A stretch of DNA of 64,000 bases from an uncultured Actinomycetes bacterium (lineage in GTDB: Bacteria > Actinomycetota > Acidimicrobiia > Spongiisociales > DATADW01), in assembly GCA_963733905.1 (NCBI GenBank), contig CAVTEU010000003.1, positions 910-64,909 on the forward strand. Direction: 5' to 3'. A program made the translations under genes and the position numbers. Shown in pieces: positions 1,780 through 57,918 of this stretch. The notes below the pieces were generated by a model. That model was not told the DNA's origin and ran no database searches. It saw only the letters and a program-made list of their open reading frames with translations. Position 1 is the stretch's first letter. Each line of letters starts with the position of its first letter.

Positions 1780-4278
<2,499 letters not shown>

Positions 4279-4568
4279 GTCTGGATCTCCTCCGATCGAG
4301 CCCCTACTGGGGTACCCCGAGTATACCGCTCGACCCTGTCTAGCTCGGGGGGCTCCCGAGCGCCTTACATGGTTATCGGCACCGAGGGCGCTGCGGATGA
4401 GGCGATCTCGCTTCGCTCCCAACCGAATCGACCCGGGATTAGTAGATCCCGGGGTTCGCCAGCCTCACCCCGTAGACCACTCCTCGGGCCGTGATGTAGA
4501 TGGTGCGCCGCGCCCGTCGGCGTCGCCGAAGGCAGCGTTTGCGGGGCCAGTCGGGCACGAGGACGTGA

Positions 4569-10504: not shown

Positions 10505-16677
<6,173 letters not shown>

Positions 16678-24200: not shown

Positions 24201-24229
24201 CCGGCCAGGGCGAAACCCGATGGGGGCGT

Positions 24230-37416: not shown

Positions 37417-37786
37417 CGCTTTCTCCTTCCAGGCTCATCTCGAGTTCGAGAGTGTGATGGCGATCTGTGGTGTGGACCCGCAGGTCGTCGACCATGCTGC
37501 GGATCAGGAACAGGCCCCAACCACGCGGCGTCTGCAATCCCTCCAGCTTTGCCTCGAGGTCGGGGGTCTCCGGGTCGGGGACCTCACGTCCGCCGCCCTG
37601 GTCGACGATGCGGACCTTCACCGCCCCGACGTTGGCGCACACCTCGATCTCGACCGGCTTGTCCGGCTCGTTGCCGTTGCCGTGCTCGATGGCATTCATG
37701 GTCGCCTCGGCTACGGCCGTCTTCAGTCGCTCCATGCGACCGGGCTCCATACCGAGCGGGCTCACCCACTCGGCGACCCGGTCCAT
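37397..37786 (-). CDS. anti-sigma regulatory factor (RsbW/SpoIIAB-like Ser protein kinase, HATPase_c)
   Basis: MERLKTAVAEATMNAIEHGN...VEIEVCANVGAVKVRIVDQGGG...RGWGLFLIRSMVDDL. Confidence 0.8.
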   Translation of the reverse strand: MDRVAEWVSPLGMEPGRMERLKTAVAEATMNAIEHGNGNEPDKPVEIEVCANVGAVKVRIVDQGGGREVPDPETPDLEAKLEGLQTPRGWGLFLIRSMVDDLRVHTTDRHHTLELEMSLEGESDAGERL

Positions 37787-37796
37787 GGCGACCCTT

Positions 37797-39004: not shown

Positions 39005-39028
39005 GTTGCCTTTCTTCTACCCCGCCCT

Positions 39029-39047
39029 CGTGACGGCATCGTTACGG
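39029..39047. promoter_or_regulatory. CGTGACGG-N3-CGTTACGG element 25-45 nt upstream of the GAF-PP2C phosphatase gene start
   Basis: cgtgacggcatcgttacgg. A third related copy (cgtccggacatcgttacggacg) is at 36622-36643, upstream of the 36578 gene. Confidence 0.4.
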
Positions 39048-39180
39048 ATGACCCGTCCTATGCCACTGGGGACGCGAAACATCAAACCTGAAAACCGCTT
39101 GGTCTTGTATCGGCAGATGGTGCCGCGGTCCTAAACGGTCGACTGAGAGCGGGATCGCCGAGATTTCGGGGCGACGGTGC

Positions 39181-39212
39181 GGTCGAAACGGGGGTCAAAC
39201 GGTATCGAAACG
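39181..39212. repeat. three tandem direct repeats (G/A)TC(G)AAACGG at 10-12 nt phasing (GTCGAAACGG / GTCAAACGG / ATCGAAACGG), with a fourth CTAAACGG at 39130
   Basis: Read directly from the sequence: gtcgaaacgggg gtcaaacggt atcgaaacggcac. Helical-turn periodicity is typical of OmpR/SARP-type direct-repeat operators. Confidence 0.6.
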
Positions 39213-39275
39213 GCACTTCGGCGACACTCTCGGTGACTCGCACCGAGGGAAGGGCGCCTACAAACAAGGGGAGGC

Positions 39276-39470
39276 ATGAGCATTCGATACCCATTAGTGG
39301 CCTGTCCGCAACCAGGCTGCATACAACTTGCAGAGATCGACCAGACGATGGAGATCGCGTCGACCGCGGGGCCGGTCGGACACGGTTCGCTCCGTCGCGC
39401 TGAGGGACACTGGTTCTTCATGCCATTGGAAGGTCTGGTGGAGGCAAGACGTGGAGGCAGGGTGGCCTGA
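39276..39470 (+). CDS. possible small ORF (64 aa) with a strong SD (AAGGGGAGG); protein of doubtful reality
   Basis: MSIRYPLVACPQPGCIQLAEIDQ.... It is the only plus-strand ORF in this intergenic gap with a good RBS. It lies about 65 nt downstream of the AAACGG direct repeats. Confidence 0.2.
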   Translation: MSIRYPLVACPQPGCIQLAEIDQTMEIASTAGPVGHGSLRRAEGHWFFMPLEGLVEARRGGRVA

Positions 39471-40644
39471 TCAGCCACCCTCCCCGCGCATCCAGAGACG
39501 GACGGTCGCCGGGCGGAGCGTCTGGCCGACGACGCTGGAGAGATCGTCCGTGAGTCCGTCGAGATCGACCTCGCTACGCAGCCGGGAGGCGAACTCGTCG
39601 ACAACTCGACCTGCGTCGTACCGGGACCGATCAAAGCGACGGTCGATGAAGCTTTGGACCTTGCGCCGAACCGGGGTGAACAAGGCTGCCGCCGCCAGCG
39701 TGGCACCGGCCACCGCCAACGGATTGTCTGCGACCGACAACCGCACCCAGGGCCACGGCGAACCCGGCATAGACCGCCACCAGCACCGCGGCCACGATCG
39801 CATATGAGACGGTGCGGCTGATGAGCCGGTCGATGTCATAGAGGCGGTAACGGAGGATCGCGATGGCGACCGCTATCGGGAAGCCGAGCCCGGCAACTAG
39901 CCAAGGGACCAGCCCGACCAGGTCGCCCTCGAAACCCAACAATTCGGAAACGAGCATGAAGACCAAACCGAGCAGCGCCGCCACCAGAGCCAAGGCGACC
40001 CACTTCAGCTGGCCGCGCTCCACGCCGGACGCCTTTCGGTACCGCCCGATCAGCGACAGGGCACCGAGGACGATCACCACGACCGTGGATCACCACGGCG
40101 ACTGGTACGACCGACTCCAACCAAGGCGCTTGGTCTATGCCCATCGGGTTGTCGCCCACACCCGAAGGGGTCACGATCGTGGGTTTGAAGAACGAGTGCC
40201 AGGGCGAAGACAACGAGAGCGGCGTAGCCGACTGACACCACCGGTCTCCATCTCGGCCCGGGCAGATGACCATCCGGGAAGATAGAACGTCGCCGGGAAG
40301 GCGATGAGGCCGAAGGCGGGAGGCACCAGAATCGCACCGACGAGGGCGACCCACCCTGCCCACGATGCGGTCTGCACCGGGAACCACACCGATTCGGCGA
40401 TGCTCTGCAGGTTGACCCCCAGCCCGAGCGCGGTGACACCCGCCAGCCAGCACCATCCCAACGGATGGTCGGGTCGGCGAGCAGCCAGCAGCAACCCGAC
40501 GATCGGGAATCCCATGAAGGCGGACGCCCAAATCACGTCATCGACGCTGAAGCCGGCGCCCGAGCTGACCACGATGCCGAGGAACCACGAGGCGATTGCG
40601 ACGACGAACAACAAACCGGCCGCCCACGGCGCCCACCTTCTCAT
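39471..40644 (-). CDS. array paralog P13 (most downstream): polytopic membrane protein with conserved C-terminal cytoplasmic domain; at least 2 apparent frameshifts
   Basis: N-terminus MRRWAPWAAGLLFVVAIASWFLGIVV (tail of ORF 40171..42723). Middle YRKASGVERGQLKWVALALV...AILRYRLYDIDRLISRTVSYAIVAAVLVAVYAG (39631..40080). C-terminus DNPLAVAGATLAAAALFTPVRRKVQSFIDRRFDRSRYDAGRVVDEF..RLRSEVDLDGLTDDLSSVVGQTLRPATVRLWMRGEGG (39471..39839). Confidence 0.7.
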
Positions 40645-40658
40645 GGGCTTTACATCGG

Positions 40659-41799
40659 TCACAGTGCGGTTCCCTTGAGCCAGAGAGAGACCGCCGCTGG
40701 CCGCAACGTCTTGTTGACGACTGCGGTGAGGTCGGTCGAAAGCCCCTCGAGATCGATGTCGTCCCTGAGCCGGGCGGAGAACGCCGCCGCCACCACGGAT
40801 GCGTCGTATCCGGCGCGGTCGAACCTCCTGTCCACCCACGCCTGCACCCTTCGGCGCACCGGGTTGAACAGGGCGGCTGCCGCCAGCGTCGCACCGGCAA
40901 CGGCGAGCGAGTTGGCCTCCCCGATCAGGGCACCCAGTGCCGCAGCACCGGCGAAATAGACGGCGGTCAGAACCACGGCGACGAAGGCGTAGGTCACGGT
41001 CCGGGAGACGATCCGGTCGATCTCGAAGAGCCGGTACCGGGTGATGGCGACCCCGATCGCCACCGGGATGGCGAGAAGCGAAGCTGACGAAAGCACCGAA
41101 CGCATCGACTCGAGATCGAGGAACAGGTCGAGGACGATGACCACCAAGCTGAGTGCAGCCGCCCACAGCAGCCAGATGATCTGGGCCCGCATCCGCAGCC
41201 GACGACCGACGGAGCCTGAGGAGGAGCGAGGCCGAACACGCCAGGAGCGCCGGGAACACGATGAGCGCCATCCCGTCGAGGAGGTCGTACTCGGGCGCTG
41301 AGTCGAGCCCCGTCACCAGGGCCTGCGAGGAGAGCGGCCACAGCCGGGGGACCCCCACCACGAGGGCCAGCGCGAACCAGGCGACCAGGAACCACGCCAC
41401 CCAGCGCCATCCCCGACCGGCCGGTTCGCCGGTCGGGAAGATCAGCAGCAACAAGAGCAACGCGCAGATGCTGACCACCCACCCCCAAGAGCCATACCAG
41501 GCGATCAGATGCTCCAACGGCCATGCTGTGGCGGAAGCCAGCGATGAGAGGACGTAGACCTGCCCCATCGACGTCAGGGTCTGCGCCACGCCGGCCACGA
41601 TGCAGAGCACACCGATACGGTTACCCGGGCGGTGGGCGAGGATGATCGCCCCCACCACGGCGAACGCCGGCCAGGGAAGAGCATCGCCCAGCGGCCGGAG
41701 ATCGGTGAGGGTGGCCGACCGGTCGACCATGAAAGCGACGATGGCGACCCAAGCCACCGCAAAGCCGGCGGCCACTCCCAACCACACTCGCCGTCTCAT
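40659..41799 (-). CDS. array paralog P12; one apparent frameshift about 41200
   Basis: ATG 41799 overlaps the P11 stop (ATGA). MRRRVWLGVAAGFAVAWVAIVAF...LLLLLIFPTGEPAGRGWRWVAWFLV..., then 40659..41192: ...AIPVAIGVAITRYRLFEIDRIVSRTV...NSLAVAGATLAAAALFNPVRRRVQAWVDRRFDRAGYDAS...DIDLEGLSTDLTAVVNKTLRPAAVSLWLKGTAL. Confidence 0.75.
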
Positions 41800-42949
41800 C
41801 GCGCTTCCTCGCGCAGCCACAGGGCGACGCTTGCCGGCCGCAGGGTGCTGCCGACAACCGCGGTGAGATCGGTGGTGAGACCGTCGAGATCGACCTCGTC
41901 CCGCAGGCGGGTGCCGAAGTTGTCGACGACCCTTCCTGCGTCGTACCGCTGTCGATCGAAGCGGCGGTCGACGAATCCCTGCACTCGGCGCCGCACCGGT
42001 TGGAACAAGGCAGCTGCCGCCAAGGTGGAGGCGGCAACAGCGAGGGGGTCGTTTGAGCCGAGAAGCGCCTGGAGCCCGAGTACGCAGCCGACGTACACGC
42101 CGGCGAGAAACACGGTCACCATTCCGTAGGTGAGGGTGCGTCGAATCACCCGGTCGAAGTCGTAGAGGCGGTAGCGCAGCACGGCAACGGCGATCGAGGC
42201 GACCAACATCAACACAAATAGCGTGAAGACCACGTTGGCGACCACGAAGTAGCCGAGTTCGTAGAGCACGAGGTTGAGGGCCATCACGGTCACCGAAGCA
42301 GCCAGGGCACCGGCGAACACCTTGATCTGCTGGTGCTCGGTCCCCGTAGATCGGCGGTATCGCTGCACCGCCCCGAACAGTGCCGCGCCAACCGCCACCA
42401 ACACCATCACCATGCCCAGCACCGCGGCAGGCTCGAAGAGCGATGACAGTTCGGGAGCGCTGATGGGAAGGTCGATGGTGGTGGGAGGGGTGACGGTGTC
42501 CAGCGTCACCGACGGTACGAAGGCGTTCCCGAAGACGACCAGCCCCAGCCCGGTCAGCGCCACCGGGGCACCCACCGATAGCGGGCGGAAGGCAGTCTGC
42601 CGTCGGGGAAGAAGAGCGGAAGGAATACGAGCAGCAGGACCAGTGAGGCCGCCCACTGCCAGGTCCCGAGCCATGCACCCCATCCCGCCATCGGTCCTCC
42701 GGCTGCAGCAACGCCCTCACCAATCACGCCAAGTGTGAAGGTGAGGCCGAAACCGGCGAGTATCAAGCCCACCGGGTTCTCAGGGAGCCGCCAGACCAGA
42801 TAGGCGCCGGTCACGGTGGGCGAGGCGATGGCCAAAAGCGCCATGACGTCGACGAGCCACCGTCACTCTGGACCGCCTGCGTCTGCCCATAGATGAGGAC
42901 GGTGAGGCTCGCCAGACGCAATGAGGACGCCGAGCCAACGGCGGATCAC
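41796..42949 (-). CDS. array paralog P11; at least 1 apparent frameshift near the N-terminus
   Basis: GTG 42949 overlaps the P10 stop (GTGA): MIRRWLGVLIASGEPH.... 42554..42844 gives ...VLLLVFLPLFFPDGRLPSARYRWVP. 41796..42683 gives ...QRYRRSTGTEHQQIKVF...AVLRYRLYDFDRVIRRTLTY...DPLAVAASTLAAAALFQPVRRRVQGFVDRRFDRQRYDAGRVVDNF...SVALWLREEAR. Confidence 0.7.
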
Positions 42950-44138
42950 GATCGGTTCCCCTCAGCCACAACGACACCGTGACCGGTCGGAGTGTCTGCG
43001 CCGACCACCGCGGTGAGGTCGGTGGTGAGCCCGTCGAGGTCCACCTCTTGGCGCAGCCTCGATGAGAGAGTCGTCCACCACACGCTCGGCGTCGTATCGG
43101 GACCTGTCGAATCGGCGCTCGACGAAGCGCTGCACCCGGCGCCGCACCGGTTGGAACAGGGCGGCTGCCGCCAAGGTGGAAGCGGCAACGGCGAGGGGGT
43201 CGTTTGAGCCGAGAAGCCCCTGCAATCCAAGGACCGAGCCCACGTAGACGCCCGCCAGGACGACCGACACCAGACCGTATGTCACGGTACGGCGGATCAC
43301 AAGACCAAAGTCGTAAAGGCGATAACGGAGAACGGCAACCGCGATCGAAGTGACCAGTGTGACGACCACCACGCGCGAGACACGATGTTGGCAAGGATCT
43401 CGAAACCCGGACTTCGTAGAGGACCAGGTTGAGCAAGACGCCGACGAGGCCAACGACGAGAGCGCCGGCGAAGACCTTGATCTGCTGACGTTCGATCCCG
43501 GATCGACCGACGGAATCGCCCGACTGCCCCGACGAGCGCCGCGATCACGCGATATGAGCATGAGACCCATTCCGACCAATGCGGCCGGGTCGAAGAGCGA
43601 TGTCAGATTGCGGAGCGCTGATCGGAAGAGAGACAACGATCTCAGAAGAGCCGGATGAGCCACCTCGGCCAGTTGGGCTCGCAAGTGAGGCGTTCAGGCC
43701 GAAGACGAACCAATGCCAGCGTCCGGTAAGTGCTATCGGTGGGACCCATCGGAAACGTCCGACGAGGGGATACCGGGCCGGTCGGGGAAGAGCAGCGGAA
43801 GGAAGATCAGAAGGAGCGCCATGGAAAGGGCCCATTCCCAGGTCCCGATGCCAGGCTCCCCAGCCCGCCAAGAGGGCCACCGGTCTGGGCAGGATGTCTT
43901 CCCCGATGACCCCGACGGTGAATGCGAAGTCCGAAACCAGCGAGAATCCACCCCACAGGATTGGCCGGGGAGCCGCCACGACCAGATAAGCACCTGATGC
44001 CGCTTGGAGAGGCGAACGCCAGGAGCCCCAGGATATCCAGGAGCCAGTTCTCGACCTGGGGACTTTGCGTCTGCCCATAGACGATGACGACTGAGGCTGG
44101 CGAGCCCCATAACGACGCCGAGACCAACGGCGGATCAT
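42946..44138 (-). CDS. array paralog P10; several apparent frameshifts
   Basis: ATG 44138 (MIRRW...) overlaps the P9 stop. Fragments 43733..44110 (...LLLIFLPLLFPDRPG), 42962..43684 (...AVLRYRLYDFGLVIRRTVTYGLVSVVLAGVYVG...PLAVAASTLAAAALFQPVRRRVQRFVERRFDRSRYDAERVVDD) and 42946..43230 (...RLRQEVDLDGLTTDLTAVVG...). Confidence 0.6.
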
Positions 44139-45284
44139 AGTTCCCGTTCCCCTCAGCCAAAGCGACACCGTGACGGGTCGGAGCGTCTGGCTGACAACTG
44201 CGGTGAGATCGGTGGTAAGGCCGTCGAGATCCACCTCTTGACGTAGCCTCGAGGAGAAGTCGTCCACCACCCGGCCGGCGTCGTAGCGGGATCGATCGAA
44301 TCGGCGCTCGACGAACGCCTGCACCCGGCGGCGAAGAGGGGTGAACAACGCCGCTGCGGCCAGCGTGGCGCCGGCAACTGCCAGCGGGTTTCCCCGACCG
44401 ACAAGCGCCCCCAGGGCGAGGGCAGATCCGGCATACACAGCCAACCAGGACCGCCGCCACGACCGCGTATGACACGGTGCGGCTGATCAGCTTGTCGATG
44501 TCGTAGAGCCGGTAGCGGAGGATGGCAACACCGATGGCGGCTGGGATGGCGTTGAGTGCGATGAAGACGAGCGACACATCCAGGATGACGCTCTCGGGGA
44601 CCACCTGGGTGGTTACCAGGATCACGATCACGAAGACCGATCGCCGTCATCAGCCATGGGTACTGGAGCCGCTCCACTCCGCTGCTGGCCCGCCACCTCC
44701 GTACCAGGCTGCCCAGGGCGACCAGGAGGAGTAGCGGGATCAGGAAGAACCCCTGGTCGAGCATGAACGCCGAGAAGCCGCGAGAGCCCCGGTCTAGGGC
44801 CAGCGGGCTCACCAGACCGGTGATCTCCTTGGGAGCGGGGCTGATGAGCTCGGCGAAAACCACCGCCCCCCAGACGACCAGAAGCGCTCGGCTCAGGAAC
44901 CGGTCGAACCCGGTGGCGGGCGTACCGTGCGGAAACAGCACCGGGATGAGGGCGAGCGCCAACGAATGCCGAGTAGCCGAGAATCGAGCTGAGCATCTCG
45001 ACCCAGACGCTGACGAGGTCGGTCATTCCCCCATCGAGCAGCGCCTCGAGGAAGAAGGTGAGGCTCCAGGCCAGCCCGATGAAAAGCAGGAGCCGCCCCA
45101 TCCTGTGCCCCGGCCTCTTCCACAGGATGAAGCGCACCCATGGTCGCGAATCCCACCCAGCTGAGAAGCCACCAACTGTCGGGCAACGTGATCGCCCCGA
45201 TGATGAGCCCGGCGAGCGCAAGCCGAAGGCGAGCGCCAGCCCGAGCCCGTGCACGAATCGCCGCGTCGCCTGGAGCAGGCTCAT
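44135..45284 (-). CDS. array paralog P9; several apparent frameshifts
   Basis: ATG 45284 overlaps the P8 stop (ATGA): MSLLQATRRFVHGLGLALAFGL.... 44893..45186 gives ...WWLLSWVGFATMGAL.... 43545..44444 gives ...PLAVAGATLAAAALFTPLRRRVQAFVERRFDRSRYDAGRVVDDFSSRLRQEVDLDGLTTDLTAVVSQTLRPVTVSLWLRGTGT. An alternative-frame stop tga overlaps the next ATG. Confidence 0.6.
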
Positions 45285-46470
45285 TCGTCTTCCCGGAGCC
45301 AGAGCGACAACGTCGTCGGGTGGAGGGTGCTGCCCACTACCCCGGTGAGATCGGTGGTGAGCCCCCGAAGGTCCGACCTCTTCGCGGAGTCTCGAGGCAA
45401 AGCCGTCGACCACGCGGGCAGCGTCATAGCGGGAGCGGTTGAATCGTCGATCGACAAACGACTGAACCCGACGTCGCACCGGGTTGAACAACGCCGCCGC
45501 CGCCAGAGTGGCACCCGCTACCGCCAGCGGATTGCCCCGTCCCACCAGGGATCCGAGAGCCAGGATGGAACCGGCGTACACCGCTACCAGGACGGCAGCG
45601 ATGACCGCGTAGGAAACGGTCCTGCTGATCAGCCGATCAATCTCGTAGAGGCGGTAGCGGAAGATGGCCACGCCGATGGCGATGGGCAACAGGCTGATGG
45701 CCACGGCGAAGGGGACGTCCGTTTCTACCGAGAGATCTGCCACCGACTGGAGGAGGTCCTCGGTTAGCGGTATCAGCGCGGTGACAACGGCGGCAGTCGT
45801 GAACCACTTCAGCTGTTGCCGTTCGTCGCCTCGGGAACGCCGGTAACGCACCACCACCGAGGCCGCCGCAGCGAGGATCAACGCAGCCAGCAGGATGAAG
45901 AGCACGTTGCCGATGGCGCTTGCCTCCACATCGGGCATGCCGGCAACCCCGATGGGATTGGGCAGCGAGAAATCGGGCTCGCCGAGCGTCGGCGAGAGGG
46001 CGGCCATGGCGGTTGTCAAACCCGTGATCAGCGATCCCCAACCAGAGCACCGGTCGCCACCGTGGCGACGCCGGCCTGCCGTTCGGGAAGAGGAATGGAG
46101 TGAAGAAGAGCACAAGTGCAAGCGTCGGGTACCAGTACCACTCGGCCAGCCACGCCGCCGGTATCAATCCAGGTGCATCTCTCGACAGCTCTTCCAATGC
46201 GTAGACGGCGTATTCGAACGCAAAGGCGCCCGTCGTCACCAGCAATGCGACAGACGAGAGGATCCAACCCATGACGTTGCCGGGGCGCCGGAGAACGATT
46301 AGAACCCCGACCGCCATGTAGGCGGTGAACGCCAGGAGCAGGGCGATACTTCCTACCGGGTCGTCTTCGACCTGACCGCTCCGAGCGTGGAGCACCTCGA
46401 TCAGGACGGCGCTGGCCAGATAGACGATGACCATGGCTGCGACGATGAGGCGTGGCCCGAGGCTTCTCAT
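45281..46470 (-). CDS. array paralog P8; several apparent frameshifts
   Basis: ATG 46470 overlaps the P7 stop: MRSLGPRLIVAAMVIVYLASAVLIEV...FLFPNGRPASPRWRPVLWLG (in ORF 45637..47292). 44628..46121 gives ...RYRRSRGDERQQLKWFTTAAV...AIFRYRLYEIDRLISRTVSYAVIAAVLVAVYAG...NPLAVAGATLAAAALFNPVRRRVQSFVDRRFNRSRYDAARVVDGFASRLREEV. 45281..45514 gives ...DLRGLTTDLTGVVGSTLHPTTLSLWLREDE. Confidence 0.65.
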
Positions 46471-47722
46471 CCAGCCCTGCTTTCCTCGGCTCCTACGCCG
46501 TGGCGCACCCAGATCGACAAGGTCGCCGGATGCAGGGTGTTGCTCACCACTCCGGTGAGATCGCTCGTGAGGCCAGCCAGGTCGACCTGGTGGCGGAGAC
46601 GAGTCGAGAAAGCCTCCACCACCCGTGCCGCGTCGTAGCGGGAGCGGTTGAAACGGCGGTCCACGAAGCCCTGCACCCAGCGCCGCACCGGGTTGAAGAG
46701 GGCGGCCACTGCCAATGTGGAGCCCGCCACGACCAGCTCGCTCTCGGACCCGATCAGTGCCGGTAGCCCGAGCACACCGGCCAAATAGACCACCGCAAGG
46801 AGAGCCGTGACCACCGCGTAGGTGACGGTGCGGCGGACGATCACGTCGATGTCCCACAAACGGTATCGCAGGATCGCCAGACCCATCGAGAGAGGGATGA
46901 TGGCCAGCGAGCCCGCGATCAGGGTCTCGCCGACAATGGTTGCGAATATGGACCCGGCTTCGATCACGGGAGTCAGCTCCACGGCGAGAATCAGCAGAAT
47001 GAACAGAGCCAGGCCAGTCGTTACCGAGAGCACCACCCACTTTGTCTGCTGTCGTTGCACCCGGTCCGAGGTGCTGCGATATCGGTATACCTGGGCGACG
47101 ATGCCCGTGACGACCAGGAGGTTGAACAGGTTGTCGTTGATGACCGTTGGAAGGACGTTGACTTCGGGAAGCAGGCTCTCGTCGAACTGGTACAAGACCC
47201 AGATGGGCGCCAGCCACAGCGTCCAGCGCGGTACGAAGCGGCCGGTGGGGAACATCCAGAGCACGAGCAACAGCCCGGCCCCGCCCAGCCACTGAAGAGT
47301 TCGGGTCACCAACTCAAGCCAAATCGGCACGCCGGACGCGATCAGCTGGAACGTCGCCGATCCGAACGCGGTCAGCCCGAATGCGACCAGCACCCAGCGG
47401 TGAAGCTGGCGAACCAGTCGTCCTTGCGACGTGTCAACAGCACCAGTCCCACCACGAGATACGGGAGTGCAACGAGGACGTCGCGTCCCGTTGCAAGGGC
47501 GGCGTAGGCCTCGGGGGAGGCACCCATCGCCGTCCACTCCTCGAACTGAGCCTCGGTGAAGCCCCAGTTCTCGCACTCCTCGGTGCCTTCCACCGTGGTG
47601 AGGTCTGGGTCCACGGTGCACGGCTCGGCGTAGGCCCGGTAGGCGTAAGGGAGCGAGACGACGAAAAGGGCGACACTCGCCACGACCACCGCCAGGGCGA
47701 TGGGGTAGACAAACCGTCTCAC
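46467..47722 (-). CDS. array paralog P7; carries a unique Cys-containing extracytoplasmic insert after TM1; at least 1 apparent frameshift
   Basis: GTG 47722 overlaps the P6 stop (GTGA): VRRFVYPIALAVVVASVALFVVSLPYAYRAYAEPCTVDPDLTTVEGTEECENWGFTEAQFEEWTAMGASPEAY... (tail of 47372..48025). 46467..47621 gives ...LWMFPTGRFVPRWTLWLAPI...YRYRSTSDRVQRQQTKWVVLSV...LAILRYRLWDIDVIVRRTVTYAVV...LVVAGSTLAVAALFNPVRRWVQGFVDRRFNRSRYDAARVVEAFSTRLRHQVDLAGLTSDLTGVVSNTLHPATLSIWVRHGV. Confidence 0.7.
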
Positions 47723-48960
47723 GTCTCCGCCTCCCGGACCCAAAGCGACATCGTGGCCGGGCGGAGAGTCTCCTCGACTACACCGGTCAGGTCGGCTCGC
47801 AAGCCGTCGAGGTCGGCCTCGGCGCGCAGGCGAGAAGAGAACTGCTCCACCACCTGCTGGGCGTCGTAGCGTTCCCGGTCGAAGCGGCGATCTACCCATC
47901 CCTGCACCCGGCGCCGTACCGGGTTGAACAGCGCCGCCGCCGCCAGGGTGGCCCCGGCCACCGCCAAGGGATCTGTCGCGCCCGATGATCGCGCCCAAGG
48001 CGGTGACGCCACCCAGATAGACCAATGCCAGCAGTGCGGCCAGGGCCGCGTAGCTGACCGTGCGGCGGACGATGTCGATCTATCTCATAGAGGCGGTAGC
48101 GGATCACAGCCAACGGCGATGGCCACCGGGATAGCGGCGATCGAGATGACAAAGAGGAGGTCCAGCCACGCCGGCGTTTCCTCTCCACCGGAGAATGCGA
48201 ACATGGAGGAGTAGACGACGGCGAACATGCCGACGGCGTAAGCGAGCCACTTGATCTGCTGGCGCTCCTCCGCCCGGGCGCGGCGATAGCGGACGATGAC
48301 CGCCGACGCGCTCCCCAGAGCCAGGATCACCAACCCCACCCCCCACACAGGCGAGAAGCCCCCCTCCCAGAATTCATCGGTGATGAACCCGATCGGATTG
48401 GGCACCGACCAGATGGTTGTTTCCCCAACTACCAGCTCGAGCTCTGCGGAGAAGACGGTGAGGAGCGTGAAGACCAGGAGCATCCCCGCCTCCAACGCCA
48501 CCAGCCACCGCCAGCGTGGGGTGGGAACCGTGCCGGTTGGGAACACCAGGGGCAGATGGAAGATCGGAAAGATGAACAGAACCCAGGACCAGCCCTGAAA
48601 CCAGATCAGTAGCCAGACGCCGAGGTCAACGGTCGGCGGAGCCGTCATGGACGACAGTGGGATGGCGGTCAGACCCGACAACGAGGCTCCCAGGGCCCAG
48701 ACCAGTAGCAGCCAACCGATCGGGTTGCGGGGCCGGGAGGCGAGGATGAGCATCGCCGCCACCGCGGTGATTAGCGGAATGAGCACCAAGACCGGATCCC
48801 CATCCAATCGGTCCAACTCACCCTGGCGGATCGTGATGAAGATGTAGGACACCGAGATGGCGAGAACGATCACAGCGATGCCCCAGGCCAGCGGTCGCCG
48901 CCAGCCGAAGCCCACCACCTCCTCTTCCGCGGGCAGTGCCCCTCGGTCCGGGCCGGCCAT
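47719..48960 (-). CDS. array paralog P6; about 2 apparent frameshifts near the C-terminus
   Basis: ATG 48960 (TGATG overlap with the P5 stop): MAGPDRGALPAEEEVVGFGWRRPLAWGIAVIVLAISV...FPTGTVPTPRWRWLVAL...VRYRRARAEERQQIKWLAYAV...AAIPVAIAV (48085..48960). 47719..48012 gives ...DPLAVAGATLAAAALFNPVRRRVQGWVDRRFDRERYDAQQVVEQFSSRLRAEADLDGLRADLTGVVEETLRPATMSLWVREAET. Confidence 0.7.
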
Positions 48961-50135
48961 CAGGCGTCACTCCTTGTCGATGCCAGCCACACCCCGGTGA
49001 TGGTGGGACGGAGCGTGCGGTTCACCACTCCTTCCAGGTCGGCGGTGAGTCCATCCAGTTCCACCTGGTCGCGCAGCCGCGCCGAGAACCCGGCCACGAC
49101 CTGCTCACTGTCGTAGCGCGCCCTGTCGAAGCGTCGGTCCACCCAACGCCTGGACCCGCCGTCGCACCGGGCTGAACAGCGCCGCGGCCGCCAGGGTGGC
49201 CCCCGCCACAGCCAAAGGATTGTCGCGACCGACGATGGCGCCGAGCGCAGCTATCCCCCCGAGATACGCCGCGGCGACGACGACGGCCACGATCGTGTAG
49301 GCGAGGGTCGCGACTGACGAGCCGATCGATCTCGTACAGACCAAGGCGCGTCACGGCGACGAACAGCGTGCCGCCAACCAGGATGACGAAGCCGATGTTG
49401 ATGAGAGAGGAGAGCAGCGGGGGTACGTCGCCGGGGATGGTCACGGCGAAGAAGATGACCGCGACGACGCCGACCCATGCAAGCCACTTGATCTGTTGGC
49501 GCTCCACCGTACCTGCGCGTCGAAAGCGAAAAATGAGCGAGATGACGCCGATCAGCGAGGCGACGGGTATGGCGTTGAAGACGATCGGTGCGAGCGCTTC
49601 TGCGATGGGCAGTGAAGCCGGCGATACCCAGCGGGTTGTTCAAACCAGGCAATAGCTCTTCGTCCACCGGTCCCGGGGCAAAGGCGCTGATGAGAAAGGT
49701 GAGTGCTACCAGCGTCCAGAGCAGCCACAACAGCGGCCGCCATCGGGGAGAAGCGGGCTGGCCGTCTGGATAGAGCGCCAGGAGGAAGGGGATCGAGTAG
49801 GGCCCCGGGATCCACACCCAGAGGACGCACCACCCCGCCACTGCGGTCACCCGATGATCGGGCCCCAAATTGGTAAGGGCAAAGTGGGCGATGTCCGAGA
49901 GCAGTGCTTCCAGCGGGAAGACCAGGCCGGGGATGATGGCCAGCCAAGCCACTGCGTTGGTCGGCTGACGGCGGGCGATGAGATAGCCGAACGTCCCGAG
50001 GATGACGAATGCGAACAGCTCGACCGCTTCGAGCACTGGGCTGGCACCAACCGATGGCGCGTACGCGCCGAGCACAGCGGCTACCGACCAGGAGACGATG
50101 CTCGCCAGCCAGACGACCAGGGCTGCCCGTCTCAT
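48960..50135 (-). CDS. array paralog P5; several apparent frameshifts
   Basis: ATG about 50135 overlaps the P4 stop (ATGA): MRRAALVVWLASIVSWSVAAVLGAYAP...LALYPDGQPASPRWRPLLWLLW (second half of ORF 49251..51263). 49022..49507 gives ...ERQQIKWLAWVGVVAV...TRLGLYEIDRLVSR. 48960..49142 gives VDRRFDRARYDSEQVVAGFSARLRDQVELDGLTADLEGVVNRTLRPTITGVWLASTRSDA. Confidence 0.6.
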
Positions 50136-51312
50136 CGAGCTCCCTCCCCGACAAGCACCAGCGACACCGTCGCCGGGCGCAACGTGGCCCCCACGACGGC
50201 GGAGAGGTCGGTGGTGAGCCCTCCAGATCGATCTCGTCGCGCAGCCGTCCCGAGAAGGCGGAGACCACCTGGGTGGTGTCATACCGGGTTCGATCGAATC
50301 GCCGATCGACCCACCCTGGACCCGCCGGCGGACGGGAGTGAACAGCGCCGCCGCTGCCAATGTGGCCCCCGCCACAGCCAAGGGGTTGTCGCTCCCCACG
50401 ACCGCCCCCAATGCTGCCACTCCTCCCAGATAAACCGCGGCGAGCACCGCAGCAACCAATCCGTAGCTCACCGTCCGGCTGATCAATCGGTCGATGTCGT
50501 ACAGCCGGTACCGGAAGATGGCGATCGCCATTGCCGCGGGGAGCAACACACCCGCAATCGCCTCGTTTATCTGGTCGAGCGCGCCAGGAAGGTCGATGGC
50601 CCAGGCTGGGAGACTGAACACAGCCGCCAAGGCGAGCCACTTGATCTGCCGTCGCTCGATCCCGGAGGCTCTTCGGTAACGGAGCAGCACAGACAGGACC
50701 CCGAGCGGCACTCCGGCAAAGAGCACTACCAAGAGCACGCTCCCCGCCGGCTCGACAGCTTGAGCGGATGTCTCGCTCACCACGCCGCTCCACGTGGCCG
50801 GAAGGGTCCCGCTCTCACCTGGGAGCATCCATGTCCCTGCCGCCATCAGCCCCACGGCGATGGAAGTCGTCCAGGCCACGATTCGCCAGAACTTCGAGGA
50901 AAGCCTGCCGTCGGGAAAGAGGAGCAAGACGAGACCTATCAGCCATAGCGAGAAGAGGAAGCCGTAGTCGCCGATCAGGCCGAGCAGCCCGGTCGAGGGC
51001 GGTCCTGTCTGCCCCGAGGCGAGCAGGAGAACCCCGTAGTCACGGCACGCCATTTGCATTATCTGGGCAAAACCCAGACCCAACCAGGCCCATCCGTACC
51101 TTTTGTCTGGGAAACGGGTTACCAGCAGCCAGCCGACCGCAGCAATGGCGAGCCCGCTCGGGTACGAGGAAAGGCGGGTAGCCCAGGGGGCGACGTCGGC
51201 CACTGCCGGGAAGTTCCGACTAGCCAAGGCCGACCAGATACCCAAAACCGCCATGGCCACCAATCGACAGGGTCAGGATCGTGGCGCTCCCTGCGATCAG
51301 CCGGCGTCTCAT
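50132..51312 (-). CDS. array paralog P4; at least 2 apparent frameshifts
   Basis: ATG about 51312 overlaps the P3 stop (ATGA): MRRRLIAGSATIL..., then first half of ORF 49251..51263: ...LLLFPDGRLSSKFWRIVAWT...LRYRRASGIERRQIKWLALAAV...AIFRYRLYDIDRLISRTVSYGLVAAVLAAVYLGG...NPLAVAGATLAAAALFTPVRRRVQ. The C-terminal domain is in another frame. Confidence 0.65.
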
Positions 51313-52468
51313 ACCCGCTCCCCCACCAGGACCAGCGAGACTCCGGCCGGTCGCAGGGTCTCGCCGACAACGCGGTGAGGTCGCCGGTGAGACCATCGAG
51401 GTCGACCTCGTCGCGCAGCCTCGCCGAGAATTGCTCCACGACCGTGTGGGCGTCGTACCTGGTCCGGTCGAACCGACGGTCGACCCATAGCTGGACCCGG
51501 CGCCGCACCGGGTTGAACAGCGCCGCCGCGGCCAGGGTTGCGCCTGCGACCGCCAGCGGGTTGGTGCTTCCCACGACGGCGCCCACCGCGGCGGCAGCGG
51601 CCAGGTAGACCCCGGCGAGCACGACGGCCACCAGCGTGTAACCGGCCGTCCGCCTGATCAACCGGTCGATGTCGTACAGGCGGTAGCGGAAGACGGCCAC
51701 CGCGATCGAGACCGGAAGGAGGACGAGGCCAAGAAAGAGAAACTCGGCGACCACGCTTCCCTGGGCGGTGAACTCGGCAACGATTCCCGCCGCCACCACG
51801 GCGACGGCGAGGAGGAACCACTTGACCTGGGCCCGCTCGATCCCGTGCGAGCGGCGGAACCTCAATACGAGCGAAACGAGCGCCGCAACCGCCCCGAAGA
51901 GCATGAGCGGCACCCCCACCGTGTTCAACACGGCGAGGATCGGGTTGGTCGGCTGTAGCTCGTCGCCGGTGAAGAGTTGGACCGGTGACAGCTTCAGAGC
52001 GGCAGGCAGCCCGGAAACCGCGAGGCATACGAACCCGGTGACACCGATCCATGCGATCCAACGCCAGCGGGGTGTCGGAGGTCGGCCGTCGGGGAACAAG
52101 AGCGGGAGCAGGCAGGTCAGAACGGTGACCCAGCCGAAGAATCCGACGCCGCCAAGCCAGTAGAAGATCTGCGGCCAAGGCGCCGCAACACCGGCGGTGG
52201 CCAAGGCCTCCATCACCTCGTCGGCCAAGACGTTGAGCGAGGCCAGAAACCCGACAAGCGCAACCAGCCACCCAACCGGCTCCTCGGGGCGGCGGGCGAC
52301 GAGAACGGCTCCGGTCAGCGTGAACGAGACCAGCATCCAGCAAAAGACCAGCACCTCGGAGGAGAAACCCTCATCCCCGGTTGCGAAGAGGACAAGAGCC
52401 GAGACACCGCTGACGACCGAGATCGCCGCCATCACCAGGCCCCAACGGCGGAGCACGATGGGGCTCAT
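51309..52468 (-). CDS. array paralog P3; nearly intact, one apparent frameshift about 51360
   Basis: ATG 52468 overlaps the P2 stop (ATGA). ORF 51119..52468: MSPIVLRRWGLVMAAISVVSGVSALVLF...LLFPDGRPPTPRWRWIAWIGV...LRFRRSHGIERAQVKWFLLAV...AVFRYRLYDIDRLIRRTAGYTLVAVVLAGVYLAA...NPLAVAGATLAAAALFNPVRRRVQLWVDRRFDRTRYDAHTVVEQFSARLRDEVDLDGLTGDLTA. The true C-terminus ...VVGETLRPAGVSLVLVGERV is in 51309..52343. Confidence 0.8.
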
Positions 52469-53613
52469 CGTCCCGACTCCCCTATCAGTACAACGGCGGC
52501 GGAAACCGGGCGGAGCGTCACCGTCACCACGCCGGTCAGGTCCGTGGTGAGCCCGTCGAGGTCGACCTCGTCGCGCAGTCGAGCCGAGAAGCCCTCCACG
52601 ACTTGCTCGGTGTCATACCGTGCCCGGTCGAAGCGGTGATCGACCCATGCCTGGACGCGGCGCCTCACCGGGCTGAACAGTGCCGCGGCGGCCAACGTGG
52701 CGCCGGCCACGGCGAGTGGGCTGGTTCGCCCCACCAAAGCCCCGATGGCGGCGACGCCGCCGAGATACATCGCCGCAAGGAGCACGGCAACAAGTGTGTA
52801 GCTCACCGTCCGTCGGACCAACTGGCCAATGTCGTACAAGCGGTAGCGGAGCACTGCTATCCCGATCGCCACCGGGAAGACGGACACTGCGAACACGAAC
52901 GAGGAATTCCCAATCCAATCCGGTACCTCGAGACCCAAGATGGGCGCAACCTCCTGGGCGACGAGCGTGACCGCGATCATTGCCACCGCGTACGTCAGCC
53001 AGGCGACCTGTTTGCGCTCGACGCCTGTAGAGCGCCGGAACCTGACCACGAGACTCGCCGCGGCCAGGACCATGCACGCCAGCAGGACGACGATCACGGC
53101 TGTGCCGATTCCCGAGTCCTCGGCTCCGGGGGCTCCGGCGACTCCGAGCGGGTTGGGGACCCCGCCTGCCACGGTGGGCTGGATCACTACGAGCACCGCG
53201 TTCACCACTACGGCGCCCACGGCCACCCACGCAACCCAGCCCCAGCGGGGAGTCGGGGGGCGCCCATTAGGAAAGAGGAGGGGGAGGAACACGAAGGTCC
53301 CGGCGAGGGTGGCGAAGAACATCGAATCGGAAAACAGCGAACCGAGCACCAACGACCACTCGGGCACATTGCTCCGATCGGCGAGGATTCCAGTCAACGC
53401 GCTCGACACCGCGATCAACCCGATGCCAACCATGACCCATCCCACGCGGTTACCCCCGGTGCGCGAAACGATCACCGCCCCAACGAGCGCCATGGCCAGG
53501 TACGGGAAGGAGAGCGAGTCGAAGGTGTGCTGAGCGATTTGGTTAACTACGGCGCCGGCCAGGATCAAGACGAAGAGCGACCACGCCAGCACTGACTGGG
53601 TGCGCGGGCTCAT
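52465..53613 (-). CDS. array paralog P2; apparently intact (383 aa)
   Basis: Second half of ORF 52465..54780 from MSPRTQSVLAWSLFVLILAGAVV to ...DTEQVVEGFSARLRDEVDLDGLTTDLTGVVTVTLRPVSAAVVLIGESGR. ATG 53613 overlaps the P1 stop (ATGA). It has the full set of family motifs (LLFPNGRPPTPRWGWVAWV; VRFRRSTGVERKQVAWLTYAV; VLRYRLYDIGQLVRRTVSYTLV; PLAVAGATLAAAALFSPVRRRVQAWVDHRFDRARYD). Confidence 0.85.
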   Translation of the reverse strand: MSPRTQSVLAWSLFVLILAGAVVNQIAQHTFDSLSFPYLAMALVGAVIVSRTGGNRVGWVMVGIGLIAVSSALTGILADRSNVPEWSLVLGSLFSDSMFFATLAGTFVFLPLLFPNGRPPTPRWGWVAWVAVGAVVVNAVLVVIQPTVAGGVPNPLGVAGAPGAEDSGIGTAVIVVLLACMVLAAASLVVRFRRSTGVERKQVAWLTYAVAMIAVTLVAQEVAPILGLEVPDWIGNSSFVFAVSVFPVAIGIAVLRYRLYDIGQLVRRTVSYTLVAVLLAAMYLGGVAAIGALVGRTSPLAVAGATLAAAALFSPVRRRVQAWVDHRFDRARYDTEQVVEGFSARLRDEVDLDGLTTDLTGVVTVTLRPVSAAVVLIGESGR

Positions 53614-54780
53614 CGTTCCTCCAGGAGCCACAGCGACGCCGAGTTCGGACGGAGGGTGACGTTGACCACGCGGCGTCAGTTCGGAGTTGAGTCCAATCAG
53701 ATCGACCTCGTTGCGAAGGCTGGCGGTGAACCCCTCCACCACCATCTGGGCGTCGTACCTCGACCGGGAGAAGCGCCGGTCAACCCACCCCTGCACCCGC
53801 CGTCGCACCGGTGTGAACAGCGCGGCAGCGGCGAGCGTGGCCGCGGCAACCGCAAGCGGGTTCTCGCTTCCCACCAGGGCGCCCAAGGCGGCGACGCCAC
53901 CCAGGTACACCGCAGCCAGCGCCACCACCACAACGGCGTAGGTGACGGTGCGGTTGACGATCCGGTCTATCTCGTACAGCCGATAGCGGAAGACGGCGAT
54001 CCCGATCGCGACAGGGAGCGAGAGATAGGCCGCGCCGTAGAGGATGCTTTCGAGGGTCTCGTTGAGCTCGAGCAGGTCGAGGGCGGTGACCACCAGGATG
54101 AACACAGCCGCGGCGTAGAGCAGCCACCCGATCTGTCGGCGCTCCAGCCCGTCAGAGCGGATGAATCGCACGATGAGAGCGATTACCGAGACCACGGCGA
54201 GAACGAGGAATCCGTCCAGGAGAAGGGGACCAATCGCCAGGCCCACCTCGACCAGCGCCGGTATGCCGATCGGGTTGACGAAGCCGGGTTCCACTTGCCC
54301 GAAGGCGCTCAGGACCACGAGCAGCCCGGCGGCGGCTGCGGTTACACGCACCACCCAGCGCCAGCCGGTGCTTGGCGGCCGGCCAGTCGGATACAGCAGG
54401 AACAGCAGTGGGATCATGGCCAGCCCGGCGTTCCAACCCCAGACGGCAAACCACTGGCCGATCGCGGCCCCCGGGCCACCGGTCATCGCCCAAGTCGCCC
54501 CTGCGGCGGTCAGTGATACAACGAGCCCGTCGAGCAACATGAGCCAACCCACCGGGTTCCCCCGCCGCAGCACGATCAGGGCCCCCACGGTGCTGAGCGC
54601 AACGAAGGCGATCCCAATGGTGATCCCCTCGACGTCTGGGGACTCGCCCGACGACTGCAAGACCACAGCGACGACAAAGCTGGCTACGGCCAGGGCGAGG
54701 CAGACCATCGCCAGTAGCCGAAGCGGGCGCGACGGGATAGCCCACTCCCTCTCCGTCATCTCTTCACCGCGCCGTACCAC
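53610..54780 (-). CDS. array paralog P1 (first gene of the operon); one apparent frameshift near the C-terminus
   Basis: GTG 54780 with AGGAGA SD (alternative ATG 54759). First half of ORF 52465..54780: ...LLFLLYPTGRPPSTGWRWVV...VRFIRSDGLERRQIGWLLYAA...AVFRYRLYEIDRIVNRTVTYAVV...NPLAVAAATLAAAALFTPVRRRVQGWVDRRFSRSRYDAQMVVEGFTASLRNEVDLIGLNSELT. The true end ...VVNVTLRPNSASLWLLEER is in the adjacent frame. Confidence 0.8.
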
Positions 54781-55074: not shown

Positions 55075-57918
55075 ATGGGAGATCGTCACGCCGCCGGCCA
55101 AGACTCCGTTGCCCTGCGGGTGCATCTGCTGGGACCGCCCGACATCCTGGTCGACGGCCACCCCATGAAGGTCGACACGCGGAAGGCGGTGGCTCTGCTC
55201 GCTTACCTCGCCGTCACCGGCACCCCGCACAACCGCGATGTCCTTGCGACCCTGCTCTGGCCGGGGGACGATCCTGACCGGGCGAGGGGCAGCCTGCGCC
55301 GCACCCTCTCCACCTTGCGGTCGGCGCTAGCCGACCGATGGGTCCGCGCCGACCGGGAGTGGGTCGCGTTCGAGCCGAACAACGAGGTGTTCGTAGACCT
55401 CGATTCCGTCCGGGATCGCATCGCTGATATCGGGGACCACGGCCACCCCGAGCGCGAGGTTTGCGCCCTATGCGTGCCGATCCTGACCTATGCGGCCAAT
55501 CAACACCGTGGCGACTTCCTCGCCGGGTTCTCCCTGCGCGACAGCCCGGATTGGGATGATTGGCAGTCGGCCCAAGCGGAGATGCGCCGACGGACTCTCG
55601 CCGACATACTGGAGCGGCTCGCCATCGGCCAGGCCGCCGCTGGGATGTACCGGCAGGCGATCGACACTGCGGAGCGCTGGCTCTCGCTCGATCCGCTGGA
55701 CGAGGCGGCACACCGTCAATTGATGCTGCTATATGCCTGGGCGGCGGATCGCGCCTCGGCCTTGGAGCAATATCTCAAGGCGGTCCGCATCCTCGACGAA
55801 GAGCTGGGGGTTGCGCCGCTGCCCGAGACCACCGAGCTCAACGACGCCATCCTCGAAGACGACATCCCCCCGGCTCCATCGGCGGGACGACGGGTGATAG
55901 CCGCTCCCGAGAGACCTCGCTTCCCGCTCGGGCCTCCGGTGATTCCGTTGGTGGGGAGAGAATCGGATCTAGCCGTCCTTACCGCGGCCATGCGGTCTGG
56001 TGCGGTCCTCGCCATCGAGGGAGAGGCCGGCATTGGCAAGACAAGGCTCCTCGAAGAGCTCGTCAACAGAATCGACGAACCCGTCGTCGTCCAGGCATAC
56101 GAGGGCGAATCGGGGCTGGCATACGGCTTGATCCATGAGGCGATCGACAAGTGCCCTCCGCGCCGGGGGTGACGAGCGACTCGCCGCGGTCTCGCCCGAT
56201 GCCCTCGGCCAAGCGGCGCGCCTCTTCCCCGACCTCGCGCCTGGGCCACTGCCCCCGCTCGACACCGACGCCGCCGCCGCCCGCACCCGGTTGTTCGACG
56301 GCGTGTGCCGGACCCTCGCCGCTCTCTGCGAGGCAAGTGTGCTGGTGATCGACGACGTGCATTGGGCGGACGAAGCCTCGATCGAACTTCTCTCCTATCT
56401 CATCAGGCGGCTTGACCGGCTTGGGATGACACTCGTGGTCACCTGGCGAACCGAGGAGTTCCCCCCCGGCCACGGGCTGCGGAGGGTGGTGAGTGCCGCC
56501 CACCGTCAGGGCGATGGTGTGCTGATCAAGCTCGACCGGCTCGATGCGTCGGCGGTGGGGCACCTCGCAAGCAGCGGTGCTCGGTGATGACGCCGACCCA
56601 GAGGTCGTGGATGTCGTTTTCGCCGAGACCGAAGGGCTCCCGTTTTTCGTCGTCGAGTACCTCACCTCGATCAAGGAAGGTCGGCCGGAATCTGCTGACG
56701 TGCCCGACCTCCTCGAGTCGAGGCTGGCCGGGCTGAGCGACATCGCGCGACAGGTTGCCTCGGCCGCGGCGGTGATCGGTCGATCCTTCGATGTCGAGTC
56801 TGTTAGGTCCGTGTGCGGGCGGAGCGACGACGAGGTGGTAGCAGCCCTCGAGGAGTTGGTGCAGCACGGTGTGGTGAGGGAGCCGAGCGGTGGTGTCACC
56901 GGTTACGACTTCTCGCACGAACTGCTCAGGCGACATGTGCTCGAATCGACCTCGCTGGCGAGACGACGCCTGCTCCACCAACGGACCGCGGCCGTGCTGG
57001 CAGGACGACATCGCCGCGACCCAGGGGCGATGGCGGCGCAGATCGGCTTCCATCTCGAAGCGGCAGGCAACGACCAGGAGGCGGCGGATCAATACGCCAT
57101 GGCGGCGGGGCGTGCCGCCGCGCTGTACGCCAACCGCGAAGCCCTCGATCTCTACCAGCGGTCGCTGGCATTGGGGAATCGAGACCCGGCGATGCTCCAC
57201 ATCGCTATCGGCGACCTCGAGGCCTTGGCGGGTGCTTACGGGTCGGCGGTCGGCTCGTACCAGACGGCGCTCGCTTTGGGGGGTCCGTCACCACAGGTCG
57301 AGCGGAGGCTCGCTCAGGTCTACTCCTACCTCGGCGCCTGGGAGGTGGCGGAAGCCCACATCCTGGAGGCACAGCGCCAAATGGCCGCCGGACGACCCCG
57401 AACGGATGACGGTGGCGGTGGATCATGCGCTGATCGCCCATCGGAGCGGCGATGACGAGCGTGCTGCGCAACTAGCCGGCGCCGCTTTGGAGGCGGCTGA
57501 CGCCACTGCGGATCCCGGCGGCCGTGCACGGGTCAACAACCTGCTCGGGATCCTCCGCCGGTCGGAGGACCCGGAGGCCGCACTCGACCACCTCGCCACC
57601 GCCCGGAGACTGGCGGCAGAGACGGATGACCCCAGGCTGCTGGCGGGCGTCCTCAACAACCTGGCGCTCGCCTATCTCGCCGAGGGTGAATTCGAGAAGG
57701 GCATCTCTGCGGCGGAGGAGGCGCTCGATGTCTACCAACGGACCGGTGACCGCCACCGGGCGGCGGCGGTCCACAACAATCTCGCCGACCTACTCCACAG
57801 GGCAGGGAGAGGTGAAGAGGCGATGGCCCACCTCAAGGAGGCGGTCGCAATCTTCGCCGAGGTGGGGACCGAGCCGGGAGCCTTCGAGCCGGCGGTGTGG
57901 AAACTCGCCGAGCTCTAA
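55075..57918 (+). CDS. AfsR-like regulator: SARP wHTH plus BTAD, NB-ARC/AAA P-loop ATPase, TPR repeats; at least 3 apparent frameshifts (about 56150, 56570, 56900)
   Basis: 54880..56172 gives RVHLLGPPDILVDGHPMKVDTRKAVALLAYLAV...LRRTLSTLRSAL (OmpR-type wHTH), BTAD (LMLLYAWAADRASALEQYLKAVRILDEELGVAPLPETTELNDAIL) and Walker A GEAGIGKTRLLEEL. The frames 56135..56587, 56544..57455 and 56890..57918 carry TPR-like repeats. The start is uncertain (ATG 55075 or GTG 55120). Confidence 0.7.

Follow-up and report, generated by a model that had tools for sequence, protein, structure and literature searches.

In the Bacillus subtilis stressosome, the sensors RsbRA-RD and YtvA act together with RsbS and RsbT and converge on one partner-switching cascade. 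Here we analyze a locus from an uncultured member of the Acidimicrobiia, contained in a stretch of 64,000 nucleotides (the window; GenBank assembly GCA_963733905.1, contig CAVTEU010000003.1, positions 910 to 64,909), in which a tandem array of thirteen genes for polytopic membrane proteins (P1 to P13) stands in a cluster with genes for a GAF-like phosphatase/kinase, two STAS proteins, a START-fold protein and a divergent AfsR-like regulator. The array resembles the stressosome in that paralogous putative sensors, with a variable sensing part and a conserved docking part, would feed one partner-switching cascade. However, stressosome sensors are soluble and dock via STAS domains, whereas the array proteins are polytopic membrane proteins without STAS, encoded by up to 13 genes. 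The soluble part of the cluster is of the kind found in Rv1364c, RsbU/RsbW/RsbV and Pseudomonas SiaABC, namely a PP2C phosphatase, an RsbW-type Ser kinase and phospho-serine STAS, and differs from Rv1364c-type modules in having a GAF-like instead of a PAS input domain, two separate STAS proteins and no sigma factor. The membrane proteins themselves share with GAF-HisKA_3 histidine kinases, the kind with NarL-type partners, a module of ten transmembrane (TM) helices, its cytoplasmic loop motifs, the linker and the first GAF elements. Unlike these kinases, they are without a complete GAF domain, a DHp (HisKA_3) domain or HATPase_c, and they are stand-alone proteins of ~390 amino acids (aa) encoded in coupled tandem arrays with no adjoining response regulator. 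Two further likenesses are more distant. The START-fold protein recalls the plant PYR/PYL/RCAR receptors with their clade A PP2C, but the likeness is limited to fold and context, and bacterial SRPBCC proteins of a generic kind score higher. Compared with 7TMR-DISM and GPCR-like bundles, the array proteins lack a large extracytoplasmic domain and have three extra TM helices, and their identity to bacterial 7TM receptors and GPCR-like bundles is 6-13%, so that the likeness may be generic.

The components of the locus are of known kinds: the sensor module is one of 7TM kinases, the soluble enzymes and STAS proteins are those of partner switching, the regulator is of the SARP/STAND type and the last protein has a START fold. 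The novelty seems to lie in a sensor module that is truncated and stands alone, in its expansion into translationally coupled arrays and in the fixed link between it and the cluster. Neither the array nor the cluster is described in the literature covered by full-text searches, and neither is an association of the array, the START-fold protein and the AfsR-like regulator with partner switching; HisKA_7TM is mentioned there in archaeal censuses alone, as a sensor domain of kinases; the proposal of an earlier note on this DNA, made from the sequence alone, that the system is undescribed holds in these and in family searches. The cluster is conserved in metagenome-assembled genomes (MAGs) of soil Actinomycetota and Chloroflexota, almost all of them uncultured. 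Signal input to PP2C and partner-switching pathways is poorly understood, as are the ligands of bacterial 7TM-type sensors, and the locus offers a concrete case of both. It also shows a route from the input module of a histidine kinase to a stand-alone receptor for a different signaling chemistry. Should the model developed below be wrong, a widespread and undescribed expansion of membrane proteins would still need a function.

Identity and fold of the array proteins

The earlier note could not assign the family to any characterized class of transporter, sensor or enzyme, whereas our analysis places it. A tblastn search against plasmids led to a Deinococcus peraridilitoris protein annotated as 'GAF domain-containing sensor histidine kinase' (WP_015231682.1), and hhalign matched the family profile to this GAF-HisKA_3 kinase with a probability of 100% (E 1e-42), aligning family residues 34-356 with kinase residues 65-395, including FFPNGRLPSRNWRP, RFMRAQGVERLQFKWF and LRYRLYDIDIIIHRT. 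P2 also matches Pfam HisKA_7TM (PF16927) over residues 41-262 with 24.9 bits (E 2.1e-5), under the gathering threshold of 28.6 bits, and precomputed PF16927 hits are present in a few homologs. These matches make the family a remote relative of HisKA_7TM or a subfamily that the model does not capture. No Pfam or NCBIfam model spans its conserved half, and searches of NCBIfam and of PDB sequences with the family gave no match. The C-terminal ~70 aa, previously taken for a domain, are instead collinear with the linker that follows TM10 in the kinase and with the first GAF helix and strand, and the family stops there, which leaves it with no catalytic output of its own. The note was right that an output domain is missing: P2 has no Pfam hit to HisKA_3 or HATPase_c. 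The family is thus the 10-TM input half of a GAF-HisKA_3 histidine kinase without the output domain.

Among the 150 best library representatives, 148 end where P2 does, at ~400 aa, and two extend downstream. One of the two, P0127 (450 bits), has two sensor modules ahead of its GAF, HisKA_3 and HATPase_c domains, and its genomic surroundings are of the two-component type. In this protein (positions 1135-4350 of locus L085) the module is duplicated in tandem within one polypeptide, so that tandem duplication of the sensor module occurs inside single genes too. Close homologs of ~390 aa number more than 3,900. With clustering at 50% identity, a profile search collected 38,801 representatives at an E value of 0.001 or below, and 11,271 at 1e-30 or below. 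Those members that bear a name in the sources searched are called 'hypothetical protein' or carry generic automatic labels such as 'MFS family permease'.

An AlphaFold2 model of P2 has ten TM helices, with a predicted local distance difference test (pLDDT) score of 82 overall and >90 over residues 1-250 (TM1-8), followed by two short C-terminal helices modeled at low confidence. The 7TM core has a GPCR-like fold and resembles receptors rather than carriers. Lysine and arginine are clustered on every other loop, and the long loop that joins TM5 to TM6 is acidic, a distribution consistent with cytoplasmic N and C termini; with both termini on that side, all strongly conserved motifs would face the cytoplasm. 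The family consensus contains no invariant charged residues inside the membrane.

In another reading, the array proteins would be kinase-less decoys: using TM8-10 and the GAF stub to heterodimerize with full-length GAF-HisKA_3 kinases whose genes lie elsewhere, they would modulate or inhibit those two-component systems. GAF proteins dimerize through the region of the domain in which the family is cut, and close full-length kinase relatives do exist, P0127 among them. The conserved cluster, however, contains neither a histidine kinase nor a response regulator, the arrays go with partner-switching genes instead, and it is difficult to see why thirteen decoys should be maintained, all of which makes this reading improbable.

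Paralogs, synteny and the proposed partner-switching cascade

Searches by tblastn with intact P2 and by a family hidden Markov model (HMM; made from 111 database homologs) recovered 13 consecutive copies on the minus strand from 54729 to 39480, each 1.14-1.26 kb long and together filling 39471-54780, as had been described before. The motifs that had been singled out in the loops and at the C-terminus, namely LLFPxGRPPSPRWR, VRFRRSxGxERxQxKW, LRYRLYDIDRLINRT and the C-terminal ~70 aa, all recur in the consensus of 54 aligned members, and the Cys-containing insert noticed in P7 is there too (~55 aa with two Cys, placed between TM1 and TM2). In full-length comparisons, pairs of paralogs share 33-54% protein identity. 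The paralogs are therefore diverged, as the note had said, at a level slightly below its estimate of 40-60%; such values mark the array as a set of old paralogs and not as an assembly stutter.

Stop and start codons overlap at 11/12 junctions of the array. The overlap is ATGA at seven of them (P1/P2, P2/P3, P3/P4, P4/P5, P7/P8, P8/P9 and P11/P12), GTGA at three (P6/P7, P10/P11 and P12/P13) and TGATG at P5/P6; at P1/P2 and P3/P4 the ATGA requires frameshift correction of the upstream gene, and at P9/P10 an ATGA exists with its TGA out of frame with P9 as assembled. A 4-nucleotide overlap is found in 112/142 adjacent pairs of related loci, making this type of junction a family-wide trait. A scan showed no excess of terminator-like sites within the array and no promoter-like sites, a result that carries no information in an actinobacterium of high GC content. 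As had been claimed for them, the junctions have the form of translational coupling, and the thirteen genes are probably expressed as a single, translationally coupled operon.

The two halves of the protein differ strongly in how they vary. Across 30 arrays, within-array paralog identity is 0.27 in TM1-7 and 0.59 from TM8 to the C-terminus, with peaks on the cytoplasmic motifs. Positional orthologs in related genomes, by comparison, are 73-95% identical, and TM1-7 is as conserved between them as the C-terminal module (the boundary between the two parts being offset by 2-7 residues in this comparison). Each paralog is under purifying selection, with ratios of nonsynonymous to synonymous substitution rates (dN/dS) of 0.07-0.38. 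This conservation of positional orthologs indicates that the paralogs are stable, individually maintained genes and no hypervariable cassettes. Copy number does change between close relatives: loci L001 and L003 (89-92% nucleotide identity) go from P2 straight to P5, L003 skips more copies, and nucleotide identity to L002 differs by segment from 80% to 98%. Whole-copy deletions and this spread of segment identity both speak for recombination inside the array.

A scan of species-representative genomes yielded 79 loci, and the contigs L001 and L002 bring the set to 81. Of the 79, 78 are labeled as MAGs; they belong to Actinomycetota (Acidimicrobiia, Rubrobacteraceae, Thermoleophilia and others) and Chloroflexota, with two labeled Acidobacteriota and one Gammaproteobacteria. 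Same-strand tandem arrays have at least two copies in 54/81 loci, at least four in 40/81 and at most 13. Where a multi-copy array is flanked by at least 5 kb on both sides (our definition of a well-flanked locus), the phosphatase/kinase and STAS genes are present in 18/18 cases, the START-fold gene in 16/18 and the regulator in 17/18. Gene order is variable: some arrays separate the regulator from the phosphatase operon, and others follow the START-fold gene. The neighbors of single orphan copies look heterogeneous.

The enzyme encoded next to the array matches Pfam GAF, SpoIIE (E 4e-49) and HATPase_c_2 (E 2.5e-22), and its orthologs in clean relatives are single open reading frames (ORFs) of ~540 aa. 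Its PP2C motifs GGDFYD, DVTDKG, NAGH, SDG and DDxT are invariant in 70 orthologs, the N and G boxes of the kinase are conserved, and its best relative in PDB is M. tuberculosis Rv1364c (PDB 3KE6). Both STAS proteins retain the phospho-serine, and their orthologs in locus L045 score above the cut-off of TIGR00377. The 240-aa protein encoded last in the cluster has the helix-grip fold by which the SRPBCC/START superfamily is defined. The earlier account of the surroundings was correct about the regulator and had overlooked all of these downstream genes (GAF-PP2C-HATPase_c_2, two STAS and START-fold), which in other genomes stand in strict synteny with the arrays.

In the reading that we favor with moderate confidence, the array is a battery of distinct membrane receptors that share one common docking module and feed a partner-switching phosphatase/kinase; among the three readings offered earlier, that of a sensor or receptor battery fits best. 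Each receptor would cross the membrane ten times, with its N and C termini inside. The GPCR-like bundle of TM1-7, strongly paralog-specific, is the presumed sensing part, on which putative ligands would act, and the cytoplasmic half of TM8, TM9-10 and the short cytoplasmic stub, common to the paralogs, are the presumed transmitter or docking part. The output of the receptors would be supplied in trans by the gene cluster: the conserved C-terminal module of each receptor would, we infer, act by binding or controlling a single soluble enzyme, the GAF-PP2C-RsbW-like phosphatase/kinase, the signal passing from receptor to enzyme, which would then set the phosphorylation state of the two STAS proteins and so bring about partner switching. 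The START-fold protein may serve as an additional modulator that depends on a ligand. The cascade probably ends at the divergent AfsR-like STAND regulator, or else at a sigma factor encoded elsewhere.

Several observations weigh against this receptor model. The cluster encodes no sigma factor or other obvious target. The C-terminal stub is modeled at a pLDDT of 44-72, and hhalign found no similarity between the receptor stub and the N-terminal domain of the enzyme. Nine of the 11 well-flanked single copies sit away from the cluster, which means that coupling is not obligatory, and a 3-Mb metagenome contig (L083, 7439-16372) has the core without a sensor array within 20 kb. Most copies in the window are frameshifted, and function in this particular genome is therefore not guaranteed. 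The L083 core consists of the GAF-PP2C-kinase, two STAS proteins, the START-fold protein, an FAD amine oxidase and the AfsR-like regulator. Taken together, the variable copy number and gene order, the orphan copies and this array-free core suggest that the array is a variable modular addition to a conserved signaling core.

The same synteny would fit equally well if the membrane proteins were the outputs or targets, switched on and off by STAS proteins or by the phosphatase/kinase binding to their cytoplasmic face. STAS domains control SLC26/SulP transporters in such a manner, and free-standing STAS proteins also have regulatory targets other than sigma factors. The conserved residues do lie on the cytoplasmic face, the cluster is without a sigma factor, and there is a precedent in a STAS protein reported to control a glycosyltransferase (PMC13555669). 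We nevertheless regard this arrangement as unlikely: the module has its homolog in the input half of histidine kinases, its fold resembles receptors and not carriers, and it lacks the conserved charged or polar residues that would be expected within the membrane in a transporter or enzyme.

The proteins might also have nothing to do with signaling and form a heteromeric membrane complex, a transporter or an array of the immunity type. So many translationally coupled paralogs could suggest stoichiometric co-assembly, and close relatives differ in copy number as immunity arrays do. We give this little credence. A range of 1 to 13 copies is unlike a fixed complex, for which we found no specific support; TM1-7 is under purifying selection between orthologs and not hypervariable; annotated neighbors include no toxin or secretion genes; and a PADLOC scan of the receptor, regulator, phosphatase/kinase and STAS proteins, the one direct test of the immunity-type array suggested earlier, matched no known defense family and so gives no support to a known defense system.

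Within the receptor model, a more specific split design can be imagined, which we put forward as a doubtful idea. Up to 13 interchangeable 7TM-type subunits would plug, via the GAF stub and TM8-10, into one GAF-like PP2C/kinase by pseudo-dimerization or strand complementation, and the START-fold protein would act on the PP2C as PYR/PYL do. That the stub complements a truncated GAF domain of the enzyme is speculative and finds no sequence support in the hhalign comparison given above; the N-terminal domain of the enzyme seemingly has its own strands and helices ahead of a canonical GAF C-terminal half. If true, the split design would funnel many membrane signals into one partner-switching output.

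Frameshifts and the state of the array

About 21 frame changes break the array copies other than P2. Comparison with L045 orthologs by tblastn places further ones in the regulator (three), the phosphatase/kinase (two) and STAS2 (one), which brings the cluster to roughly 27; panC is likewise split and a DUF72 gene is also affected. On the other hand ftsH, folE, folP, lysS, coaX, clpC and the gene of a 1189-aa STAND kinase are intact in the window. With cluster genes and panC broken and housekeeping genes intact, the frame changes are concentrated at ~32.8-58 kb.

This density (~21 frameshifts in 15.3 kb), the frameshifts in the regulator, phosphatase/kinase and STAS2 and the intactness of the housekeeping genes, by which the damage is local, could mean that the array is a decaying pseudogene set here or that the whole feature is an assembly artifact. 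Most of the evidence speaks against it. Paralog identity of 33-54% excludes a stutter, and arrays are intact in many other genomes. The dN/dS values given above were obtained for the frame pieces of the window against orthologs in L002 and L012, and frameshifted copies do not exceed intact P2 in this ratio. In 12/13 copies the frame pieces matched by the HMM are free of in-frame stops, and three stops in stitched P13 stem from one long HMM match run through an extra frame change. At the sites where the window is frameshifted, the Illumina contigs L001 and L003 are unbroken: L001, a Joint Genome Institute (JGI) metagenome contig with ~90% identity, has intact ORFs where the window has single-base insertions and is without, for instance, the extra base at 53675 in P1. 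More generally, arrays are intact in short-read assemblies, and several long-read soil MAGs show a similar fragmentation. That panC is split as well points in the same direction. Decay, or an artifact that accounts for the whole feature, is hence a poor explanation in our view. The results point instead to indels of the assembly or to events of very recent date, and most frame changes are probably consensus errors in a repetitive, strain-variable region, recent decay in this one genome being less likely; their local concentration is not fully explained.

Features and surroundings of the cluster

The coordinates of the array and cluster features are collected in Table 1.

Table 1. Array and cluster features in the window, listed from the regulator to the last conserved cluster gene.
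Feature	Position	Strand	Remarks
AfsR-like regulator (BTAD, AAA_16 STAND NTPase, TPR)	55108..57918 (start approximate)	+	Divergent, upstream; four frame pieces
P1	53610..54780	-	One frameshift near 53675, just ahead of the stop; HMM 4-371 + 370-391 in two frames
P2	52465..53613	-	382 aa; sole uninterrupted copy; HMM 2-391, 458 bits
P3	51309..52468	-	Frameshift near 51368; ATGA overlap at each end
P4	50132..51312	-	~3 frameshifts
P5	48960..50135	-	Three frameshifts (~49600, 49309, 49148); Illumina contig L001 intact at these sites
P6	47719..48960	-	Three frameshifts; junction with P5 is TGATG
P7	46467..47722	-	GTG start overlaps P6 stop; one frameshift near 47400
P8	45281..46470	-	Two frameshifts
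P9	44135..45284	-	At least 3 frameshifts; stop out of frame as assembled
P10	42946..44138	-	N-terminal part poorly recovered (frameshifts or divergence); C-terminal module clear
P11	41796..42949	-	One frameshift
P12	40659..41799	-	One frameshift
P13, final copy	39471..40662	-	One frameshift near 39730
Spacer	39005..39470	-	467 nucleotides, between P13 and the phosphatase gene
GAF-like + PP2C (SpoIIE) + HATPase_c_2 (RsbW-like Ser kinase), fused in one gene	37400..39004	-	Three frame pieces
STAS1, anti-sigma-antagonist type	37063..37434	-	Pfam STAS; canonical phospho-serine kept (INSTG)
STAS2	36700..37028 (end approximate)	-	tblastn of L045 STAS2; MNSGG; one frameshift near 36794
START/SRPBCC (helix-grip) fold orphan, ~240 aa	35846..36574	-	Last conserved cluster gene

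The neighboring regulator had been called AfsR-like, and its domains agree with this: Pfam BTAD, AAA_16 (STAND) and TPR_12 are found, and residues 3-940 of the intact L045 ortholog match the window in frames 1, 2, 3 and 1 by tblastn. The match to the NCBIfam AfsR model is weak and partial, starting at residue 3 with 43.8 bits against a cut-off of 1430, and there is no Pfam hit to Trans_reg_C. No sigma factor gene is found among the annotated cluster genes in the window, L002, L045 or L083.

In the spacer that separates P13 from the phosphatase gene, stops interrupt all three frames and neither blastn nor the HMM gave a match; it contains no recognizable coding sequence and is not conserved. 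It has no Rfam hit, and an Rfam scan of the whole window returned nothing. In many other loci the corresponding gap measures from tens of bases up to ~150. A fusion of P13 to the phosphatase/kinase was considered and rejected, the two being always separate ORFs. At the other end of the cluster, an FAD-dependent amine-oxidase gene follows the START-fold gene in two further loci (L050 and L054), as an accompaniment that the window does not have.

The cluster is inserted, at 27000-64000, between folate genes (ftsH-folE-folP-(folB/folK)) and panC-coaX-lysS, with clpC at 1783-4464. The ftsH-folE-folP...panC-coaX-lysS block resembles the conserved Rv3596c-Rv3610c region of M. tuberculosis. Elsewhere in the window, the 1189-aa protein mentioned above is encoded at 12818-16384 on the minus strand and combines BTAD, adenylate/guanylate cyclase, Ser/Thr kinase and nSTAND1 NTPase domains, which makes it a further STAND-type signaling protein of unusual make-up; a second BTAD-cyclase ORF lies nearby at 9054-9851, also on the minus strand. 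Finally, an ORF on the plus strand at 24131-25360 joins a DSP-PTPase domain to an F420H2-dependent quinone reductase domain.

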